From IMG/VR virus record IMGVR_UViG_3300014204_000145, positions 1-64,000 of that record: a stretch of DNA of 64,000 nt; one strand, 5' to 3'. This DNA comes from a virus (taxonomy: Duplodnaviria; Caudoviricetes). The translations under genes and the position numbers were made by a program. This document shows, one piece after another, positions 44,227 through 52,717 of the stretch (positions within the stretch are counted from its first letter, which is position 1; the number at the start of each line of letters is the position of its first letter). The notes under the pieces are model-generated. The model saw only the letters and a program-made list of their open reading frames with translations. It did no database searches and was not told where the DNA came from.

Positions 44227-44307
44227 AACCCTCTGCAGGACTCGAACCTACATCTCCCACATGTTGTGGTACTCTAGCCAAAGTTGTTAAACTTGAGTTA
44301 AGAGGGT
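44227..44307 (-). tRNA. tRNA-like element, D-loop insertion, anticodon arm reduced to a 3-nt loop
   Basis: ACCCTCT/AGAGGGT acceptor, ACTC/GAGT D-stem, GTAGG-TTCGAGT-CCTGC T-arm; CCACA-ACA-TGTGG anticodon arm; no encoded CCA. Confidence 0.7.
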
Positions 44308-44331
44308 AATTGTTTTTATTTTTTAGCTAAT

Positions 44332-44371
44332 AAAAAAGCTCCTTGAATGTTTTAACTTAGACAAGGAGCTT
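44332..44371 (-). terminator. Intrinsic terminator
   Basis: AAGCTCCTTG…CAAGGAGCTT 10-bp stem followed by U-tract on minus strand. Confidence 0.65.
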
Positions 44372-44535
44372 CCAACTAATATTAACCAAAACTATATTTT
44401 AATTGAGAATTTTATATTTTCTCACTTTTCTACCATAAAATAGTAAACATTTACCTTCTTTAGTAGTTTCTACAGAAGGCCTAAATATTTGTATTAATAT
44501 TAAAAATATTATTAATACAACAAATAATGCTTCCA

Positions 44536-45036
44536 TTATAACTCTATTGTTTGAGTCTTAGTACAAGTTACAGTATAACCTCTTCTACGAAGTTCTGTAA
44601 CTAATTCTTCTGAAGATATAAAATCTACAGCTTTAGATACCTTTTCTTTATGGTCTTCTATAAGACTTTCTAATATCTTTTTAGAAGGTTCTAAGATAGT
44701 AGGTATCCTTTTAGTATACTTTCTCTTAGGTATAATAACAGGGGCTTTCACAATAATCGGCTCAGGGTTTTCAATACCCATTCTATTTGCTACCCACGCT
44801 TTAAAATCTTTTATTAAAGCTTCTCTGTCTCCTACATATACAGCTTGTATCTTATTTCCTTTGTCATCTGCATAGCCTCTATCTTTAAGATAAGTAAAGA
44901 TATAAGAACCATATAAAGGTCTCATAGAAGATAAAAGACTTCTTGGCATAAGTTTAAGATTACAATTGAAGTCTTTAAAAATCTCCATTAAAGCTTCTAT
45001 TTTATTGTTCTTTTTTAATATTGATTCTTTGTTCAT
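44536..45036 (-). CDS. Hypothetical protein, possibly DNA-binding
   Basis: Basic KRKYTKR patch; C-terminal ISSEELVTELRRRGY motif. Confidence 0.6.
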   Translation of the reverse strand: MNKESILKKNNKIEALMEIFKDFNCNLKLMPRSLLSSMRPLYGSYIFTYLKDRGYADDKGNKIQAVYVGDREALIKDFKAWVANRMGIENPEPIIVKAPVIIPKRKYTKRIPTILEPSKKILESLIEDHKEKVSKAVDFISSEELVTELRRRGYTVTCTKTQTIEL

Positions 45037-45040
45037 AATA

Positions 45041-45304
45041 TTATTTTTTAGTTAATTTTTTAATATTTCTATCTAAATATTGAAGTCTAGGTAACAAAGC
45101 ACCCTCTTCATAAAAGTAACCTGTTTTCTTATCATAACAAGCAGGTCTATTTTCTTGTAAATATCTTATAAGTTGAGTATACTCATCTACAGATATTTTA
45201 TTCTTGGTTAAAAGATTAGTTGTTGCATAGCACATACCCCAACCTTCCATGTAAGCATTAAGATTTTCTTTTAATAGTATTAAAAGCTCTAAATCTGTTT
45301 TCAT
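45041..45304 (-). CDS. Hypothetical protein (87 aa)
   Basis: ORF in string. Confidence 0.6.
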   Translation of the reverse strand: MKTDLELLILLKENLNAYMEGWGMCYATTNLLTKNKISVDEYTQLIRYLQENRPACYDKKTGYFYEEGALLPRLQYLDRNIKKLTKK

Positions 45305-45477
45305 AATAAATTTTATTGGTTAGGTTAATAAAAGCCTTTTACACTCATGCTTAGGAGTAGATTGTTATTCTAAATTTGATAATACAAAAAATAAGAAATC
45401 TTTAAGAATTTCATCATTAATTGGTTCAGATACACCCTTACCTTGAGAGTGTACTCTGATAATGCTATTTTCTAACA

Positions 45478-45762
45478 TTATCTTGCTAAGTAATGAAAAA
45501 TTCTTTTAGGTGTTGGTAACAAATTTACTTTTGTTATTTCACCTTTCTTATTTCTTTCATAACTGTGTGTAATAACTTGAATAGCTCTTTCAAACTTACC
45601 CATTTTATTTATAGTTAAATTGATACCTTTAGAATTCTTTCTAAATCTTTGAATAGGCTCTCTACGAGCTTTTCTATTAGGAAACTCGGATACATAACTT
45701 CTAATAATAGGATTAGTAACTTGACCTAATTCATTCATTTGGATAACATAAGGTTGATTCAT
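45478..45762 (-). CDS. Basic hypothetical protein (94 aa)
   Basis: PNRKARR motif; ORF with A-rich leader. Confidence 0.6.
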   Translation of the reverse strand: MNQPYVIQMNELGQVTNPIIRSYVSEFPNRKARREPIQRFRKNSKGINLTINKMGKFERAIQVITHSYERNKKGEITKVNLLPTPKRIFHYLAR

Positions 45763-45805
45763 AATTTTAAGTTTTTGATTTATTAATATTAATTTTAATT
45801 AGTTG

Positions 45806-45876
45806 AAGGGAGAATGGGACTCGAACCCACATATACAACGCCATCATTGCATATTTTACCATTAAACTACCTCCCT
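45806..45876 (-). tRNA. tRNA-like element with non-canonical (6- or 8-nt) anticodon loop
   Basis: AGGGAGG/TCTCCCT acceptor, D-loop AATGGTA, GTGGG-TTCGAGT-CCCAT T-arm; TGCAA-TGATGGCG-TTGTA. Confidence 0.7.
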
Positions 45877-45882
45877 TTATTT

Positions 45883-46326
45883 TTAAGCTTCTACATCTGT
45901 AGATAGAACATTTAGCAAATCTTTATACATATCTGCTGCATCATTCATTGCTTTAATTTCATCATCTTTGATTTTACCTGCATCTTCAATCTGTTTTTCA
46001 AGAGATTTAACATTTGCTATTTTATTAGAAATATTAGGTAAATAAGAAGAATCAATAAAGCTTTCTATAGCATCTGAAGTTTTGCAACTGTCTACATTAA
46101 TAGTCATATAAGACTCTTTTAATGCTGTTTTAGCATCTTCAAGCTTATCTTGTAATTTTTCTACTGTGTTTTTAGTTGTAAATTCAATATTAGCTATTGC
46201 TTGTTCAGCATTTCTAATGTTGTTATTACACTCTTTTGTTGCTCTTACTAGAACTTTAGTAACTACAGATTTGTCATCTGTTTTTAAATACGCTAGACAT
46301 TTGTCTAAGAAACTGATTTTTGCCAT
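45883..46326 (-). CDS. Coiled-coil protein, probable paralogue of 39593-40000
   Basis: See 39593-40000; also follows a repeat-module gene. Confidence 0.65.
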   Translation of the reverse strand: MAKISFLDKCLAYLKTDDKSVVTKVLVRATKECNNNIRNAEQAIANIEFTTKNTVEKLQDKLEDAKTALKESYMTINVDSCKTSDAIESFIDSSYLPNISNKIANVKSLEKQIEDAGKIKDDEIKAMNDAADMYKDLLNVLSTDVEA

Positions 46327-46348
46327 ACTATTGGTTTTAAATTAATTA

Positions 46349-47770
46349 TTAAAAGTTTTTAACTGTTGTTGTTGGAATTGAAATTTTCTTAAATTGTTGT
46401 ATTGTTTTTAAACTGTCTGTAATGCTAGAACAAGCATCTAATTTAGCTTGATATGATTGTGTATCATACTTAGCTGAGATTTTAGGTAGTTTAGGTTTTG
46501 TAATACCAGGAAATAACTCTTCTCCTCCATAGATTTGTTCTAAATCTTGTAAGGTTATTTTTTGATAAGGTCTAGGCTCAGTTATAACATTCCATTTCAT
46601 ACGGAAATGCGAATCAAACCAGCTTTTACCGTATTCATCTAATTTAGGCATACCACATTCTTCTCTAATATAAGCAGCTCTATCTCTACCATCATATACA
46701 TCAGGTTTAGGTTGTAAACCTTGTAAAGGTTCTACAAAAGTTCTAGAAACATGTAAATCATGGCCATCAGCTATTCTAAATTTAAACCCTGCAGAATCAA
46801 AGCTTTTACTTTCCCCTTTACGATATATATTAGGTAATTCAGAGTCTTCTTCTAAAACAAAAAATTCAGGGTTATTAGAGTGTTTAGAAGCTTTGTAACA
46901 TTTGTTTTTTATAAAAGCTTTGTTAGCAGCTTGATTTGCATAAGTACAAATTACATAAAATTCTTTAGGTGTTTCAATAACTTTAGCTTTTTTAAAGTCT
47001 TCTAAAGAACAATATTTACCTTGTTCAATACAATAGTCTAACCAATCTTTTTCTTCTTCTGTGGCTATTCTGCAAGTTCTATCAGAAGCATAAGAGCTTA
47101 TATGACAAAAACTTCCATTTTCTTGCATACCATCTTTATTATTTTTCTCTATACAAAAACTGTGTCTTGCTCTTGTAGGGTCAGCTTCAATCCCAAAATC
47201 ACTAATAATAAGTATAAATTCATTATAACATGCTTTTAAAACTAAATAGTCTCCTATTTTAAAACCTTCTCTTTCTAATGGAGAAACATAAGGAGTTTTT
47301 ACTGTAGGGTCAGGTATTTCATAAGCTCCTATTTCTAAATCATTATTAGCCATAGTATGATTCAAGTAAAGCTTACCTTTATCTTCAAATCTAATATCTG
47401 TGAAACTGTATTTCATACCACTTACCACAACAGCAGAGCTAATTTTACCAAACATACCAGCTCGTTTAGGAAAACAATACCATTTACCTACTTCAAATTT
47501 AGTGAGTTCTTTACCTTCACTATTATAATATTTAATAGGTTTAGGTTTTTCTGATTCTTTTAACCATTGTTCAAATTCTTGTTGGGCATCGTAACAACCC
47601 TCAGGTGTTTCAAATAAGTAGTCTATAGTAGAAGTTTTTTCTCTAATATAGTAGTGTCTTTGATAGTCTCCTTGTCCATCAAAACTTGTTTCTAATGCAC
47701 CTTTACTTTGTAAAAATTCTATTATCTTAGAGTCTTTTCTACTAGAGCCTCTTATAAATCCTTTATACAT
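46349..47770 (-). CDS. Modular repeat protein (473 aa), related to 40094-43330
   Basis: FEVGKWY, FKIGDYL, RIATEEEK motifs and an FLQSKGA…YYI module shared with the 1078-aa protein. Confidence 0.7.
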   Translation of the reverse strand: MYKGFIRGSSRKDSKIIEFLQSKGALETSFDGQGDYQRHYYIREKTSTIDYLFETPEGCYDAQQEFEQWLKESEKPKPIKYYNSEGKELTKFEVGKWYCFPKRAGMFGKISSAVVVSGMKYSFTDIRFEDKGKLYLNHTMANNDLEIGAYEIPDPTVKTPYVSPLEREGFKIGDYLVLKACYNEFILIISDFGIEADPTRARHSFCIEKNNKDGMQENGSFCHISSYASDRTCRIATEEEKDWLDYCIEQGKYCSLEDFKKAKVIETPKEFYVICTYANQAANKAFIKNKCYKASKHSNNPEFFVLEEDSELPNIYRKGESKSFDSAGFKFRIADGHDLHVSRTFVEPLQGLQPKPDVYDGRDRAAYIREECGMPKLDEYGKSWFDSHFRMKWNVITEPRPYQKITLQDLEQIYGGEELFPGITKPKLPKISAKYDTQSYQAKLDACSSITDSLKTIQQFKKISIPTTTVKNF

Positions 47771-47808
47771 AATCTTATTTTTAGTTAATAATTAGTTTAA
47801 TTGTAAAA

Positions 47809-47904
47809 ACTCTCTCCTAGCATTAATGTAGATGTGTAAACACATGAAATTACCGATTTTAATAGAATATAATACTTAATGTATAAGGAAGCGTAGGAGA
47901 GAGT
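47809..47904. ncRNA. Candidate structured RNA closed by an 11-bp perfect stem
   Basis: ACTCTCTCCTA (47809-47819) / TAGGAGAGAGT (47894-47904) in non-coding DNA. Confidence 0.4.
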
Positions 47905-48160
47905 ATGTTGTAAGAAAAAGATTAGTGATACCTATCCTTTGAGGTATAACTCATAAATCGTTTTCTTAAAGTTTTTAATGTTTTGTTTAAAATCCAAGAT
48001 TTAGTCTGATAACCTTGGGAAGAGTTGTTGTAAATTCATGAAGTTTTACTTAAGAAGCTGCACATAGCTCCTGAATAATAAATAGTCTTAATTAAGTTGT
48101 TAGGAAGTTATAATACTTCAGTACTAAGTTAATTTTGCCCATCAAAGGAAAACTATTTAC

Positions 48161-48392
48161 TATTAGATTTTAAAAATAAGTTACTGATGATAAACATCTA
48201 TATAAAACTAATCTTTTCGCACGTAAGTTCACCAAAAGATGGTTGAGTACCCGACAGTGTACTAGGTTCCGATGCGCAGTAATGTGTCTTATCTATCTTG
48301 TTTTATATTAACACCAACCAATATTCTATGCTTCTCAATCAATTGAAGCCATCCTGTTTAAGAACTTGGTTCAGTAACTTATTAGATTTTAA
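48161..48392. repeat. Unit with 13-bp inverted repeats and 13-bp flanking direct repeats
   Basis: IR AATAAGTTACTGA 48175-48187 / 48371-48383; DR TATTAGATTTTAA 48161-48173 / 48380-48392. Confidence 0.55.
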
Positions 48393-48394
48393 TG

Positions 48395-48467
48395 CAGCAA
48401 AGGCTGGACTTGAACCAACAACCTCCTGCAGGCCGTGCAGGTACTCCGCCAATTGAGCTTCTTTGCT
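48395..48467 (-). tRNA. tRNA-like element, nominal anticodon GGC (Ala) in an atypical loop
   Basis: AGCAAAG/CTTTGCT acceptor, GCTC/GAGT D-stem, CCTGC-ACGGCCT-GCAGG, GTTGG-TTCAAGT-CCAGC; lacks U33, purine-37 and G3·U70. Confidence 0.7.
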
Positions 48468-48625
48468 TATCATTTATTTTTATTACGTAATTATTATAAA
48501 TGAACTTAACTTCTTCACAAAGTTAAATGTTTTTAAAAACAGCACTCTTCGACTCCTCTGGTTAATGTAACTACTTTGTGCACTTTCATTACAATGGTTT
48601 GCTAAGTATAGGGTGTTGTTATGTT

Positions 48626-48760
48626 TTAATTTTGTTTAGTTTTATGATATTCAATATCTAAACCACATTCATAACAGTATATACCATCATAAATGCTTTG
48701 ACAATTTGGACATATATGTATAAAATTGCCTTCTATTTGGTCTAATAAATCTTCATCCAT
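48626..48760 (-). CDS. Small zinc-finger protein (44 aa), below track threshold
   Basis: CPNC…CYEC; TAATG-coupled to the upstream ORF. Confidence 0.55.
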   Translation of the reverse strand: MDEDLLDQIEGNFIHICPNCQSIYDGIYCYECGLDIEYHKTKQN

Positions 48761-48933
48761 TATTCTAATTCTATAGGTTCATCTAACCATGTTAATTGTT
48801 TTCCTATAAGTTTTAGTGATGTCCCTTTAGGTACATTTATATGAAAACTCATATCCCATAATCCTGGGCCTCTACGAGGTAAAGTATCATAAATATATTC
48901 ATCACCATCCTCGTCAACTGCTATAAACGACAT
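48760..48933 (-). CDS. Small Bacteroidota-phage protein (57 aa), below track threshold
   Basis: MSFIAVDEDGDEYIY…PKGT…IGKQLTWLDEPIEL pattern. Confidence 0.65.
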   Translation of the reverse strand: MSFIAVDEDGDEYIYDTLPRRGPGLWDMSFHINVPKGTSLKLIGKQLTWLDEPIELE

Positions 48934-48952
48934 AATTTTATGTTTTAATTGA

Positions 48953-49240
48953 TTAATAAATATCTCTTCTATGAGATTTGCTTACTTTTTGCATTCTGTG
49001 TTGAGGCTTATTGTATTTATCAGAACTAAATTCTATTCTTAATTCTGTTTCTGTATCGCACCTAAATACTATTTTACCCACATCACCTTCTCTTATTACA
49101 AATCTACCAAGTTTAGAATGGTGTTGACAATAATGCTTTCCATTAATAATATGTACAGCATCTTTATCACAAGTAAATTTTTCTTTATAGCCAGAGGAAC
49201 AACCATAAGGTGTTATTATTTTACTGAATTCACATTCCAT
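48953..49240 (-). CDS. Hypothetical Cys/His-rich protein (95 aa)
   Basis: C…C…C…YCQHH motif. Confidence 0.6.
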   Translation of the reverse strand: MECEFSKIITPYGCSSGYKEKFTCDKDAVHIINGKHYCQHHSKLGRFVIREGDVGKIVFRCDTETELRIEFSSDKYNKPQHRMQKVSKSHRRDIY

Positions 49241-49348
49241 ATTATTAGTAATTTAATTGATTAATAATAAAATAATTAATAATCTGACTCAACATATGAT
49301 AATGTTGTTACCAGATAGTACCCTTTGACAATTAGTGGGTTAGTATTA

Positions 49349-49493
49349 ATTATTATAAGAAAATAATAAACAGTAATCTTTACCTTTTAGAAAGGGATAG
49401 TCGAGGCCTCGTTTTGAATAAGTATACACTTAAACTTCGAAATTTAGTCGGCTTCTCCAAGAGCTATACTTTACTGTTTATTATTATAAGAAA
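49349..49493. repeat. Second unit with 15-bp inverted repeats and 14-bp flanking direct repeats
   Basis: IR AATAATAAACAGTAA 49362-49376 / 49471-49485; DR ATTATTATAAGAAA 49349-49362 / 49480-49493. Confidence 0.55.
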
Positions 49494-49607
49494 GTAACAA
49501 GTAAGGATATTTTTTTACAGTCTTCCCGAGTAACTGTTTTACATTGGCGGTTAACTCCAAAAACTAACCTTATCAGTGAAAGTACTCACTTGTCACTATA
49601 TTTTAAA

Positions 49608-49702
49608 AATGGTGGTAATAGCTTCAGCACTTCTGCTCTGAACCCTTTTAAGTTTAAAGTGCAGTTCGGGATACTGCATTACAGTTTTTCATTACCACCA
49701 TT
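49608..49702. ncRNA. Candidate structured RNA closed by a 12-bp perfect stem
   Basis: AATGGTGGTAAT / ATTACCACCATT enclosing an internal TGCAGT…ACTGCA hairpin. Confidence 0.45.
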
Positions 49703-49883
49703 ATTGATAAGTACATGTTTGTTTATAAATTCTTCGCATTAATATCTTGCGTGAATAACCAGGAATTGACTTTTGGTAGACTTCCTGAACTTTCTTCTAC
49801 CTACATGGACTATATTTTAAAGGAGCTACTCAACGGAACTTTATACTTATCATAATTCTTATCGCTGTGTTATCTTCACTCCT

Positions 49884-50630
49884 TTATTTCTTTCTATTAT
49901 TTTCAAACCAAGTGTTAAATCTTTTTAACCATTCTGCTTCATTCTCTTCATCATCATTACAAGGTTCATAATAAGTTTCAGGATAAGTTATATCTTTACA
50001 ACATTGCAATAACATCTTTCTAACTTCATCTTCGGTATAAGTAATTTGTTTTTGAGTTATAATAATACCCCTATCTTTAACTAATAAATCTTGTTCTACA
50101 ATTGTTACAAATCCGTTTGTTAGTTTAATTTTACCAACATTATGGTGTTGTAATCCTTTACCACCAATTTGCCCTGTTGGTATAAATCCACCACTAATAA
50201 CAGTTGTATGTTCTCTAGCAACTTCAACATCCTCAAACTTACCACTTGCATTATATTGTTCAATTGCTTTTTGAATATCTTCTGGGGATATTTGGTCTTG
50301 AGTTGCTATGATTTTTTTGAACCTGTTAATGCCTTGAATAGTGTGTACCTTACCATCTATAGGGTTTAAAAATGTTATAGCATCATCGTGAATTTTTTCA
50401 ACAATTATGATATTATTACCAAAATAAAGTTTATCTGCAACTTCAATCTTTTCTTCTGGGGCAAGAGATACGAGTATCAATTCCATTGCTATAGTAGGAG
50501 TCTTGATGTTGGAGTCATAATAACCTATTTTACCGTTTGACACTATAGAGTGTTTTAATATACAAGGATAAGCTCTATCCTCATTATCTTTTGTCTCAAC
50601 CAATATAGGTCTTACTTTAATTGTTTTCAT
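49884..50630 (-). CDS. Bacteroidota-phage hypothetical protein (248 aa)
   Basis: KIIATQD and YTEDEV motifs; ORF in string. Confidence 0.65.
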   Translation of the reverse strand: MKTIKVRPILVETKDNEDRAYPCILKHSIVSNGKIGYYDSNIKTPTIAMELILVSLAPEEKIEVADKLYFGNNIIIVEKIHDDAITFLNPIDGKVHTIQGINRFKKIIATQDQISPEDIQKAIEQYNASGKFEDVEVAREHTTVISGGFIPTGQIGGKGLQHHNVGKIKLTNGFVTIVEQDLLVKDRGIIITQKQITYTEDEVRKMLLQCCKDITYPETYYEPCNDDEENEAEWLKRFNTWFENNRKK

Positions 50631-50989
50631 TAGATTAAATTATTTAAAGTGTATAATATCGCTTCATTGCAGGCTTCTGTTGGTGTGTCTAATTGGGGAT
50701 GTGATTTAGCTAATTGGGTGGTTGAATCAGTTTTTTGGATATCATATTCATATCTTTTAGGGTATAGCATTACTACACTTATCCAAATCCCATGTTTCTC
50801 ATATATCCACATCACAACTTCTGCTATTGTTGGGGCATCGTAATAATCAAAGTATTTTGTGCATTGTAAGGAAGGGAATTCGGAATCGTATCTTAATTCA
50901 CCATCTATATTGTAATAATCACAAGATTCATTATCAAAACCCTTCTCTTTTAATAGTTTTGCTATTTCAAATGTTACTGTTGTATTCAT
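50630..50989 (-). CDS. Hypothetical protein, paralogue of 36773-37228
   Basis: AKLLKEKGFD…APTIAEVVMWIYEKHGI…EACNEAI. Confidence 0.7.
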   Translation of the reverse strand: MNTTVTFEIAKLLKEKGFDNESCDYYNIDGELRYDSEFPSLQCTKYFDYYDAPTIAEVVMWIYEKHGIWISVVMLYPKRYEYDIQKTDSTTQLAKSHPQLDTPTEACNEAILYTLNNLI

Positions 50990-51029
50990 ATTATATAAGT
51001 TTAGTTAATTTAAAGTTAAAAACTCTTAT

Positions 51030-51420
51030 TTTATGTAACTACTCCTTTGGTTGACTACCACTAAGCATTTATAACCTCCATGTGTATTTTGGGTAGCATA
51101 GATGTCAAGTACAATACAGTATTTTCGTGTTAATAAAATAAGAGTTATATTATTACAATATTCTGTCTTCACTTTGGGTTCCTCATCAACGAATGTGATG
51201 TGAGCCTCCATATGGACTACCACCAAAGGATTGAACAGTTTTAATTGTAATGATTATAGTATTATGTGTCTGCTATTAAAGTCGCAGATTCGTTTCAAGC
51301 TATCACATATTTCACTTCGATGACTGGTTACATCTACATTTAATAAGGCATCTCACCTCTTTACACTGACGGTTACAGTCACCTTACATATTTCTACTAA
51401 GGCAGGTTTAAGACTTTTTA
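51030..51420 (-). ncRNA. Candidate large structured ncRNA
   Basis: TCCTTTGGT/ACCAAAGGA (51043-51051, 51222-51230) closes a domain with duplicated GTGGTAGTC and ATGGAGG motifs; further hairpins to ~51420; raised GC. Confidence 0.45.
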
Positions 51421-51543
51421 GTGTGGCTGTTTCATAAAAACTAGCTTAAATATTTTTCTTTATAAATTATTAACAAAAGCACATTAACCGTTATGTTACA
51501 AACTGATAAATGCTGACTCTATATCTTTTTTGTTAATATATCG

Positions 51544-51837
51544 TTAATGTTTATAATAATAAGTTTTACCTGATAATCCTTCTGTTAATGAACTGTCTAT
51601 TAATATTGTATCATTACACCTATTAATTTCATATTCATAGATTTTATTAGTTGGAGCAGGTTTGATGTTAACATCACTATAAACAATATCTGTTAATATT
51701 ATAATTACTATACACAGTATTGTAATTATAATACATAATACTCCAGATAATATTTCTGTGTCCAAAAGTAATAATATTCCAAACATTAGTGTAAAAGCAG
51801 CCCCTAATAATAAGAAGCATATAAAAAATATTTCCAT
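51544..51837 (-). CDS. Two-TM membrane protein
   Basis: Two long hydrophobic N-terminal segments. Confidence 0.65.
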   Translation of the reverse strand: MEIFFICFLLLGAAFTLMFGILLLLDTEILSGVLCIIITILCIVIIILTDIVYSDVNIKPAPTNKIYEYEINRCNDTILIDSSLTEGLSGKTYYYKH

Positions 51838-51841
51838 AATT

Positions 51842-52135
51842 TTATTTATTAGGTATTAATTCTGCACTTGCTGAAGAATATACTGTAGAGTCATTACCAT
51901 ATGTTATTATAGTGATTCTATCTCTAAGCATTTTTTCTTTCTCTTTATCAGTTATATCACATATAACTTCTTTATCAGCTCTTGTATTCCATACTGTTAA
52001 AGTATCATATATTGTAGCACCTACAGTATAAGATTTAGTCTTATACATATTTGTTACTTCATAACAGTTTTTAACAAGGTCTCTTTCACAACTGTATCCT
52101 AATACAATTGTAATGAATAGTAATAATTTCCTCAT
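51842..52135 (-). CDS. Putative lipoprotein
   Basis: MRKLLLFITIVLGYSC lipobox-like signal. Confidence 0.65.
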   Translation of the reverse strand: MRKLLLFITIVLGYSCERDLVKNCYEVTNMYKTKSYTVGATIYDTLTVWNTRADKEVICDITDKEKEKMLRDRITIITYGNDSTVYSSASAELIPNK

Positions 52136-52159
52136 AGTTTTATATTTTAGGTTAATAAT

Positions 52160-52497
52160 TTCTTAGGGAAGCAAGGAGTATTGAGGTTACAAATCTCACT
52201 CCTTGCTATTTGCTACTCACTCAGTAGCCAATGTCTTACTGTACATTAGTTTAAACGTAAACTGTTCTCTGTAAGAGGAGCAACTAACCGTGTAGAAGTC
52301 TATACTGGATTTGAACCAGTATCCACATGCATAGGCATATGTTCTAACCAATTGATATAATAGACTGTATTATTAAGCTTTTCACTTATTTGTGAGCACG
52401 CACTCATTTCCTTACAACTAAGTATGTAACACTGTTCGCCCTAATTTTATTTGTGTGAGTGGGCACGATTAGACATAATGATTTGCTTCTCTAAGAA
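52160..52497. ncRNA. Candidate ~340-nt structured RNA enclosing a tRNA-like element
   Basis: TTCTTAGGGAAGCAA (52160-52174) pairs with TTGCTTCTCTAAGAA (52483-52497), 14/15 Watson-Crick; several internal hairpins. Confidence 0.5.
52296..52366 (-). tRNA. tRNA-like element with 4-nt anticodon loop (CTAT)
   Basis: AGTCTAT/ATAGACT acceptor, ACTGG-TTCAAAT-CCAGT T-arm, TATGC-CTAT-GCATG; weak D-stem. Confidence 0.65.
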
Positions 52498-52556
52498 GAC
52501 TTATTAACATTATTTCTTCATAAAACCTCCTGTTAATTTAATTTGTAATTATGCAG

Positions 52557-52629
52557 TAGTCCATGAAGGAATTGAACCTTCGTTTAATGGTGGAAAACCA
52601 TTTATCCTAACGAACTAGATGAATGGGCC
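52557..52629 (-). tRNA. tRNA-Glu(TTC), diverged
   Basis: GGCCCAT/ATGGACT acceptor (one mismatch), AATGG-TTTTCCA-CCATT anticodon arm, GAAGG-TTCAATT-CCTTC; C at 37 and no D-loop GG. Confidence 0.75.
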
Positions 52630-52717
52630 GTGTTACTACTACTTTATAGTAATAGTAATTTATTAGAAAGACTATAATATCATCTATCCTTTGAGATGCT
52701 TACGTAAATAGTATTTC

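Follow-up and report, generated by a model that had tools for sequence, protein, structure and literature searches.

Five tRNA-shaped elements, here called E1-E5, are located in the window, a stretch of 64,000 nucleotides from the genome of a crAss-like phage, and four of them (E1-E4) are not decaying genes but consist of a tRNA body without a usable anticodon. The most likely explanation, which we put forward tentatively, is that E1-E4 are handles for the tRNA-maturation enzymes of the host, similar to the t-elements of plant mitochondria. The fifth element, E5, is an ortholog of tRNA-Glu(UUC) and represents a near-canonical decoder or a young pseudogene, for which decoding may still be possible.

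All five elements matched the Rfam tRNA model RF00005 on the minus strand with scores of 35.8-49.8 bits, each higher than the gathering score of 29 bits, and they were the sole tRNA matches across the whole 90,833-bp genome. As judged from the sequences and folds, E1 (44227-44307, 35.8 bits) is non-decoding and retains the GG in its D loop, E2 (48395-48467, 46.1 bits) has an Ala-like anticodon stem and no G3:U70, and E4 (52296-52366, 39.0 bits) has a weak D stem with the GG kept. E3 (45806-45876, 43.0 bits), for which a near relative is available, has a Gly-like body. E5 (52557-52629, 49.8 bits) is identified as Glu by ARAGORN and by its alignment with the Glu tRNAs of two related contigs, G012 and G004. 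All five contain the 7-bp acceptor stem, the 5-bp T stem and the UUCRANY-type T loop of a cloverleaf, with one C.A mismatch in E5, and the exact T-loop motif GGTTCRANYCC has five mismatch-free occurrences in the window, all within E1-E5. None of the elements encodes CCA, as an earlier note on this DNA had stated; its absence is not distinctive, since the canonical tRNAs of related phages are likewise not followed by CCA.

The RF00005 scores, the sequences and constrained folds confirm the central observation of the earlier note, namely that five tRNA-shaped RNAs are present and that all of their anticodon arms are abnormal. The arms of E1 and E4 contain 5 bp and close loops of 3 and 4 nt, respectively. 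The arm of E3 can be read with an 8-nt loop or, better, as 6 bp with a 4-nt loop, and it lacks U33 and R37. The loop of E2 either has 7 nt, including C33 and C37, or is narrowed to 5 nt by a sixth base pair, and E5 has a 7-nt loop with U33, the anticodon UUC and C37. A 7-nt loop with both U33 and a purine at position 37 was found in none of the five. The T stem is paired at 5/5 positions in every element. The 7-bp acceptor stem that had been ascribed to all five is fully paired (7/7) in E1-E4, but only 6/7 pairs are formed in E5, where 3:70 is C.A. There are also departures that the note had not listed: the D loop of E1 is 20 nt long, the D stem of E4 contains two mismatches, E2 has an A at position 8, and E5 lacks G18.

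Taken over E1-E5, 102 of 105 stem pairs are intact, yet every anticodon arm is off the norm. We counted at least 7 events at 35 anticodon-loop positions versus 3 broken pairs at 210 stem positions (Fisher p = 6e-5), a rough count that presumes canonical tRNA ancestors for all five. It had been argued that random decay would not spare the stems in this manner, which holds for E1-E4 but not for E5. In E1-E4, the acceptor and T arms appear to have been spared by selection, with the anticodon arm free to change. For E1, E2 and E4, selection is argued from the intact stems alone, because homologs to these elements were not found in any of the collections searched and a near relative was identified for E3 only. 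A megablast search of the cluster against the phage collection gave no match, nor did a scan of JGI metagenomes with an alignment or a search of IMG/VR with a DNA pattern derived from E3. The 473-aa and 1078-aa neighbor proteins yielded no useful loci as queries, the former being a singleton among 5.8 billion proteins, shorter fragments included, and the 172-aa neighbor identified only a 2.3-kb contig that diverges before E5. Looking up the clusters of 20 small ORFs recovered only the relative of E3 and near-identical copies of the same phage, which are 99.9-100% identical and uninformative on covariation.

E3 was compared with its relative (L033/L034). The flanks are about 97% identical and the flanking ORFs differ by about 2.9%, while 14 of the 71 positions within the element differ. 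All 22 base pairs are kept, with four double and two single compensatory changes and none broken, so that the suggestion that stems would covary while loops vary is borne out for E3. The tetraloop is entirely replaced and the putative anticodon is not conserved. Positions 32:38 and 33:37 of the loop covary as base pairs, and we therefore read this part of E3 as a 6-bp stem with a tetraloop. About half of the positions in the arm differ between the two, which exceeds the expectation for a passive spacer and hints at a role of its own or at short-patch recombination.

A survey of 21 related contigs revealed canonical tRNAs alongside non-decoding forms. The latter include tRNA bodies in which inserts of 20-80 nt replace the anticodon arm, and minihelices of 42-51 nt that consist of the acceptor stem, the T arm and the elbow GG. 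In the minihelices, which are present in seven contigs, all T-stem pairs are formed (100%), two of them covarying, and the elbow GG is retained. Three homologous sets have conserved ends and a variable middle: E3 with its relative L033, a Leu-like set with a middle of 22-80 nt, and the minihelices. A graded series from whole tRNA to minihelix thus exists within a single clade. No tRNA matches were found in the cultured relatives Cellulophaga phage phi14:2 and Flavobacterium phages FpV4 and FPSV-S29.

E1-E4 are placed in a hypervariable region that is transcribed leftward and probably co-transcribed, among non-coding stretches and small ORFs of which almost all are on the minus strand. E3 begins 6 nt past the stop codon that precedes it, and 43 nt separate its end from the next start codon; E4 falls inside an ORF-free stretch of 583 nt. 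A 10-bp hairpin followed by a U run (44336-44371, minus strand) ends 28 nt upstream of E1; it resembles an intrinsic terminator, so E1 may not share a transcript with the preceding gene. Another hairpin, of 11 bp according to the sequence and the minimum-free-energy fold (52633-52658, minus strand), ends 3 nt upstream of E5. Directly 3' of E2 is a structured non-coding domain (48168-48393, minus strand), recognized from blastn blocks and an alignment. It is closed by a 12-bp stem whose two halves come from blocks with near-identical sequence in G012. The blastn comparison with contig L147 gave blocks at 48357-48393 (92.5%) and 48168-48192 (96%). The placement at gene borders amid co-directional ORFs is seen both in the ORF map of the window and in the relatives, where 13 of the 13 elements examined are located between ORFs, nearly all of which are on the same strand as the element. 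An ORF of about 229 aa recurs beside the elements in several genomes but does not represent one family.

Searches of the ORFs flanking the elements against Pfam and PHROGs gave no informative match. Rfam searches at E<=1 over 43.5-53.5 kb identified tRNA only, with no GOLLD, ROOL, Y RNA or tmRNA, and the homologous stretch of G012 also gave tRNA only. No site with a Bacteroidota-type promoter pattern was found near the elements, a sigma-70 scan was at background level, and the elements have neither a leader nor a -1 nucleotide in common. The genome contains no gene for a CCA-adding enzyme, Ro60 (TROVE) or RtcB, and any processing must therefore be performed by the host.

RNase P, RNase Z and the CCA-adding enzyme recognize the 12-bp stack of acceptor and T stems together with the elbow. 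We favor the interpretation of E1-E4 as handles because the conserved module consists of the acceptor stem, the T arm and the elbow that these enzymes read. Their anticodon arm is reduced to a short closed hairpin with a loop of 3-5 nt. Cleavage by RNase P at the 5' edge would leave the upstream RNA ending just past its stop codon or after a protective hairpin. At the 3' edge, cuts by RNase Z or exonucleases would give a defined 5' end to the downstream mRNA or non-coding RNA, and the CCA-adding enzyme may cap the released tRNA-shaped piece. E5 would undergo the same processing, and the 11-bp hairpin would then terminate the upstream RNA once RNase P has cut. We infer that the elements are transcribed, that the two nucleases cleave them and that gene expression is affected. 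Four of the five elements, including E1, E3 and E4, which also have U73, start with an A1-U72 pair; such a start is unusual among bacterial RNase P substrates, albeit not disqualifying. Three functions had been proposed for the elements in the earlier note, and punctuation by RNase P and RNase Z is the best fit among them in view of the conserved module, the placement between ORFs and the position of E2 beside a structured domain, with cleavage as the predicted step.

The main rival, which we regard as a possible but lesser alternative, is that the elements are tRNA-scaffolded small RNAs. The released RNA would then be the product. Processing and stability would come from the tRNA body, and the function from whatever occupies the place of the anticodon arm, which could be a hairpin that binds a protein, an antisense loop or a decoy for host factors that bind the elbow or the acceptor end. 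It is consistent with the slot of the anticodon arm being the fast-changing and size-variable part in the three homologous sets, with the folded inserts of the relatives, one of which is capped by a GNRA-type tetraloop, and with the arm of E3, which evolves far faster than the flanking genes and still pairs. Processing and a function of the released RNA are also mutually compatible. However, the arms in this phage are only 13-17 nt with loops of 3-5 nt, which leaves little room for cargo, the minihelices are conserved despite having no arm, and the flanking ORFs, which lack family matches, point to no partner protein. It is rather doubtful, although conceivable, that the tRNA body is a natural chassis throughout this environmental clade of crAss-like phages, on which interchangeable, fast-evolving arm hairpins of 3 to about 80 nt do the real work, such as binding or titrating a host factor. 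In that case, E1-E4 would constitute one family of small phage RNAs that the tRNA pathway produces, beyond their use as cut sites.

It is improbable that the elements are decaying tRNA pseudogenes that no longer have a function. In favor of this explanation, relatives contain a canonical tRNA-Glu(UUC) at the equivalent place, and E5 differs from these orthologs by three independent and scattered point departures, C37, a C instead of G18 and the C3.A70 mismatch. The earlier note had grouped E5 with the other elements, a grouping that does not stand, as canonical relatives combined with scattered departures, the pattern that the note had named as a refutation, are seen for this one element. In support of decay, G004 contains a tRNA-Glu whose T loop is odd, another copy that has additional bases past the acceptor stem, and a stray 5' fragment, and in the window E4 has its weakened D stem and E2 has lost U8. 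On the other hand, every pair in E3 was kept through four double changes, the intact stem pairs contrast with five altered anticodon arms, and the non-decoding forms recur and covary across the clade.

It is very unlikely that the elements are unusual decoders, with E3 as a four-base (frameshift) tRNA and E2 and E5 as working tRNAs with odd loops. ARAGORN accepts only E3 (with a 4-base anticodon), E2 (Ala GGC) and E5 (Glu UUC), and rejects E1. In the alignment of E5 with the Glu tRNAs of G012 and G004, 11 pairs covary and U33 and the anticodon UUC are invariant in the three orthologs, and E5 alone may well decode. In contrast, E2 lacks U33, R37, U8 and the alanine identity pair G3:U70, and the loops of E1 and E4 have 3 and 4 nt. 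Frameshift-suppressor tRNAs of the sufD and SufB2 type have 8-nt anticodon loops, and E3 is similar to them in the ARAGORN reading of an 8-nt loop with a four-base anticodon. It differs in that U33 and R37 are missing, the positions that flank the loop (32:38 and 33:37) pair, and the anticodon is not conserved. No neighboring gene needs a frameshift, since the neighboring ORFs are intact and the sole ORF overlap is normal, and no Pth2-like gene was found among them. We therefore rejected E3 as a quadruplet decoder.

Least probable of all, and only a slight chance in our estimate, are the other two functions proposed earlier, decoys or resistant mimics against anticodon nucleases and sinks for synthetases or sensors of uncharged tRNA: the fast, structure-preserving change in E3 is compatible with an arms race, but anticodon nucleases recognize the anticodon loop, which E1-E4 do not have to bind or protect, a non-decoding mimic cannot replace a cleaved tRNA, ribosomal sensing of uncharged tRNA requires codon pairing, and identity elements are missing along with the anticodons, with E2 lacking G3:U70 and the Gly-like E3 lacking C2:G71 and C35/C36.

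If E1-E4 are indeed processing handles, Bacteroidota phages punctuate their operons with the tRNA-maturation machinery of the host. Punctuation by tRNAs is textbook knowledge for mitochondria, and known examples also include a few eukaryotic and herpesvirus RNAs, but we found no paper describing it for crAss-like phages. It would explain the odd and pseudo tRNAs that tRNA finders report in such genomes, offer a rule for annotating transcript borders in phages with unknown promoters, and make both minihelices and full bodies available as natural templates for tools to express RNA in Bacteroidota.

Several known RNAs resemble the elements in part. YrlA is a non-decoding RNA that mimics the T arm, the D arm and an acceptor-like stem of a tRNA and occurs in phages, with ends that form a Ro60-binding stem and a function together with Ro60 (Chen et al. 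2014, PMC4201824). E1-E4 are likewise non-decoding RNAs that imitate a tRNA, but we rejected their assignment as YrlA or Y RNA because their ends form the acceptor stem, there is no TROVE/Ro60 gene and no Rfam Y RNA was matched. In engineered bacterial tRNA scaffolds, the anticodon arm is swapped for a hairpin and the body secures processing and stability (PMC3753655). The 20-80-nt inserts of the relatives resemble natural versions of this laboratory design, whereas the arms in this phage are minimal and no natural cargo function is known. The mascRNA and menRNA at the 3' ends of MALAT1 and MEN-beta are tRNA-shaped modules excised by RNase P and RNase Z, which sets the 3' end of the upstream RNA, closed by a protective structure (PMC8457004, PMC11693755). 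The phage elements share the tRNA shape and the reduced, non-decoding anticodon arm with them. However, mascRNA and menRNA belong to eukaryotic nuclear transcripts in which the protective structure is a triple helix, whereas the phage has simple hairpins before E1 and E5 and several elements per operon, with processing that is predicted.

The closest analogs of the proposed scheme are the t-elements of plant mitochondria, which contribute to the formation of both 5' and 3' ends via tRNA-processing enzymes (Forner et al. 2007, PMC1920247). Both are non-decoding, tRNA-like folds at gene borders in long transcripts, in which the acceptor and T part is kept and the rest is free. The phage elements differ in that they belong to a bacterial dsDNA phage rather than an organelle, with cleavage that is so far predicted, and in that they keep the full L-shape including the elbow GG. 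They also belong to a clade that grades from tRNA to minihelix, a series that suggests a route from decoder to processing signal.

The Rfam tRNA model detected five minus-strand elements above threshold in the window, E1 (44227-44307), E3 (45806-45876), E2 (48395-48467), E4 (52296-52366), and E5 (52557-52629), and gave no other match in the whole genome. ARAGORN accepts three of the five. Across the 64 kb, the exact T-loop motif has five occurrences, all of them inside these elements. When they were folded with the outer helices held fixed, 102 of the 105 stem pairs, counted over all five, were standard, while the anticodon arm was off-norm in every element, and the sequence reading and the folds upheld the description of each of the five arms in the earlier note. 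A rough event count of anticodon-loop departures versus broken stem pairs gives a Fisher p of 6e-5. The pair A1-U72 opens E1, E2, E3, and E4, three of which have U73. None of the elements encodes CCA, which is not distinctive since the canonical tRNAs of related phages also lack it.

Most searches for relatives were fruitless, and E1, E2, and E4 had no homologue in the collections searched. The one informative relative, which covers E3 only, was reached through cluster look-ups of small neighboring ORFs and is represented by two Logan contigs (L033 and L034) that span positions 46783-45487 of the window. The two ORFs flanking E3 diverge by ~2.9% in this comparison, but within E3 the two sequences differ at 14 of 71 positions. 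Its cloverleaf has 22 base pairs, each of them standard in both the window and the relative, with none broken. Both partners changed in four pairs, two in the acceptor stem (1:72 and 4:69) and two in the anticodon arm; two further pairs have single-sided compatible changes, and all four bases of the tetraloop are different. Because positions 32:38 and 33:37 of the would-be 8-nt loop change together and remain paired, the anticodon arm is read as a 6-bp stem with a tetraloop rather than as an 8-nt loop. The stems thus covary while the loop varies, the pattern that the earlier note had proposed to look for in an alignment with relatives. The retention of all pairs through compensatory changes around a replaced loop indicates, across the one relative compared, that selection on E3 maintains the tRNA shape, not an anticodon. 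The nearby 473-aa ORF (46349-47770, minus strand) is sharply mosaic: up to 40 of 50 positions differ from L033 within 46400-46650, the sequence on either side of this part is 96-97% identical, and the N-terminal part of its counterpart in L033 is unrelated.

The virus record is 90,833 bp long with direct terminal repeats, and the window, its first 64 kb, has a G+C content of ~30%. The genes encode a family-A DNA polymerase, a helicase, tail-fibre proteins, and a large terminase. Among named phages, the terminase is closest to those of Cellulophaga phage phi14:2, a member of the Crassvirales (34% identity), and of the Flavobacterium FpV4 group (~30%), and on this basis the virus is taken to be an environmental crAss-like phage with a presumed host among the Bacteroidota. 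The terminase match is in two pieces, ~1.1-1.2 kb apart, in two related genomes, G007 (L027 7083-10529) and G012 (L148 2483-5926), which could be due to an insertion of the intron or intein type that the gene in the window lacks.

A terminase alignment led to 80 related IMG/VR loci, and 21 of the larger contigs, searched with the tRNA model, yielded 23 matches. ARAGORN accepts 12 of them, namely 11 ordinary tRNAs (Asn, Phe, Trp, Gln, Lys, Glu, Pro, Thr, and Ser) and one with a 4-base anticodon reading. The 11 rejected matches retain a normal acceptor stem and T arm. The anticodon arm is replaced by a folded insert of 20-80 nt in the contigs G015, G016, G017, G029, and G014, and also in G001, and other rejected matches are minihelices of 42-51 nt in total, with only the acceptor stem, the T arm, and a short linker. 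A pattern search for the minihelix matched seven contigs, and the reversed control pattern matched none. The T stem is paired in all members, with two covarying pairs, and the linker retains the GG-containing motif that, as part of a D loop, forms the tRNA elbow. A Leu-like set has conserved ends and a middle of 22-80 nt. The elements of the relatives are placed between ORFs in all 13 cases examined, and these ORFs are nearly all on the strand of the element. In a marine subclade (L150, L152, L154, and L156), a small hairpin of 5-6 bp with a variable loop is located 4 nt past the discriminator of each minihelix (~5-25 nt after the minihelix) and is followed by a CA-rich tract; some minihelices are also preceded by a hairpin. 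The unit as a whole looks like a conserved intergenic module.

In the window, E3 is placed 6 nt past a stop codon, and the next start codon is 43 nt beyond its end. An 11-bp hairpin followed by 3 nt precedes E5, a 10-bp hairpin with a U run precedes E1, and a non-coding stretch 3' of E2 (48168-48393, minus strand; L147 16490-16713 in G012) starts within about ten bases of E2. The conserved core of the elements is the 12-bp acceptor/T stack with the elbow. In a tRNA, this is the portion that RNase P, RNase Z, and the CCA-adding enzyme recognize, and the anticodon arm is dispensable for all three. Since the conserved part matches what these enzymes recognize, and the placement of E1, E2, E3, and E5 suits cut sites, we favor a role as t-element-like punctuation, in which the elements would be transcribed and would serve as cut sites for host RNase P and RNase Z. 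Such punctuation was one of the options in the earlier note; the stack, the elbow, and the placement argue for it, and cleavage is a presumed step. No CCA-adding enzyme, Ro60, or RtcB was found in the phage genome, and host enzymes would therefore have to act. The nearest known systems are the t-elements of plant mitochondria (PMC1920247) and mascRNA, the tRNA-shaped module of MALAT1 (PMC8457004, PMC11693755). Membership of the YrlA type of bacterial Y RNA-like RNAs (PMC4201824) was tested and rejected. In a large survey of viral structured RNAs, tRNA-like phage candidates are mentioned without an assigned role (PMC10690425), and our literature search turned up no paper treating elements of this kind in crAss-like phages.

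The stretch adjacent to E2 starts with a 29-nt block and closes ~190 nt later with a 25-nt block, both near-identical in G012 with a diverged interior. Pairing of the two blocks gives a closing stem of 12 bp with a U run after it, and the stretch may be either a large terminator or a domain of structured RNA. A 12-nt motif has exactly two copies in the 64 kb (47932-47943 and 52684-52695, minus strand), both in ORF-free stretches near E2 and E5 and followed by a similar U-rich tail. It makes up the loop of a small hairpin together with its 3' side and may be a regulatory or processing site.

Rather than punctuation, the elements may be scaffolded small RNAs in which the slot of the anticodon arm carries the function. 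The fast change of the E3 arm with its pairing preserved and the folded inserts in this slot in the relatives support such a role, which is compatible with processing.

Decay of tRNA genes is a plausible explanation for E5. The closest large relative, G012 (terminase 71% identical), has one canonical tRNA-Glu(UUC), which lies upstream of the terminase gene at a distance of a few kb, as does E5 in the window; the related genome G004 has two Glu-like copies. Because 11 pairs covary in the alignment of E5 with these genes, and U33 and UUC are invariant, E5 is judged to be orthologous to a genuine decoding tRNA, from which it departs at three scattered points (C37, a C replacing G18, and a C.A mismatch at 3:70) that are peculiar to it. 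It may still be a working tRNA, or a young pseudogene. Canonical tRNAs in relatives with scattered decay in this genome, which the earlier note had named as evidence against its reading, are thus seen at E5; for E1-E4, decay is unlikely. The other two suggestions of the earlier note, decoys for anticodon nucleases and sinks for synthetases or uncharged-tRNA sensors, fit poorly because the features that such proteins read are missing from the elements. Quadruplet decoding by E3 is contradicted by the covariation at 32:38 and 33:37, the lack of U33 and R37, and the intact neighboring genes.

In the second Glu-like tRNA of G004 (L022 2487-2670, minus strand), three additional bases are inserted between the acceptor and D stems, and the first 16 nt of a Glu tRNA recur as a stray copy ~100 nt upstream, which suggests that duplication or recombination has taken place inside tRNA genes here. 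Upstream of tRNA-Glu, G004 (L022 4000-4450, minus strand) and G012 (L147 15600-16400, minus strand) have in common ~1 kb of non-coding sequence, not present in the window, with several hairpins that have an identical 9-nt loop motif and with no Rfam match; it may be a large phage non-coding RNA. Just after E5 (52510-52531, minus strand), there is a strong Shine-Dalgarno-like hexamer, and after it a three-codon mini-ORF consists of a start codon and two lysine codons before the stop codon. Hexamers of this kind are absent from the other genes of the phage. Compared with positions 51837-52194 of the window, a relative (L035 1-641) has an additional 88-aa ORF upstream of a 97-aa gene, flanked by two copies of a 39-nt intergenic segment, which suggests that small genes here are gained or lost like cassettes.
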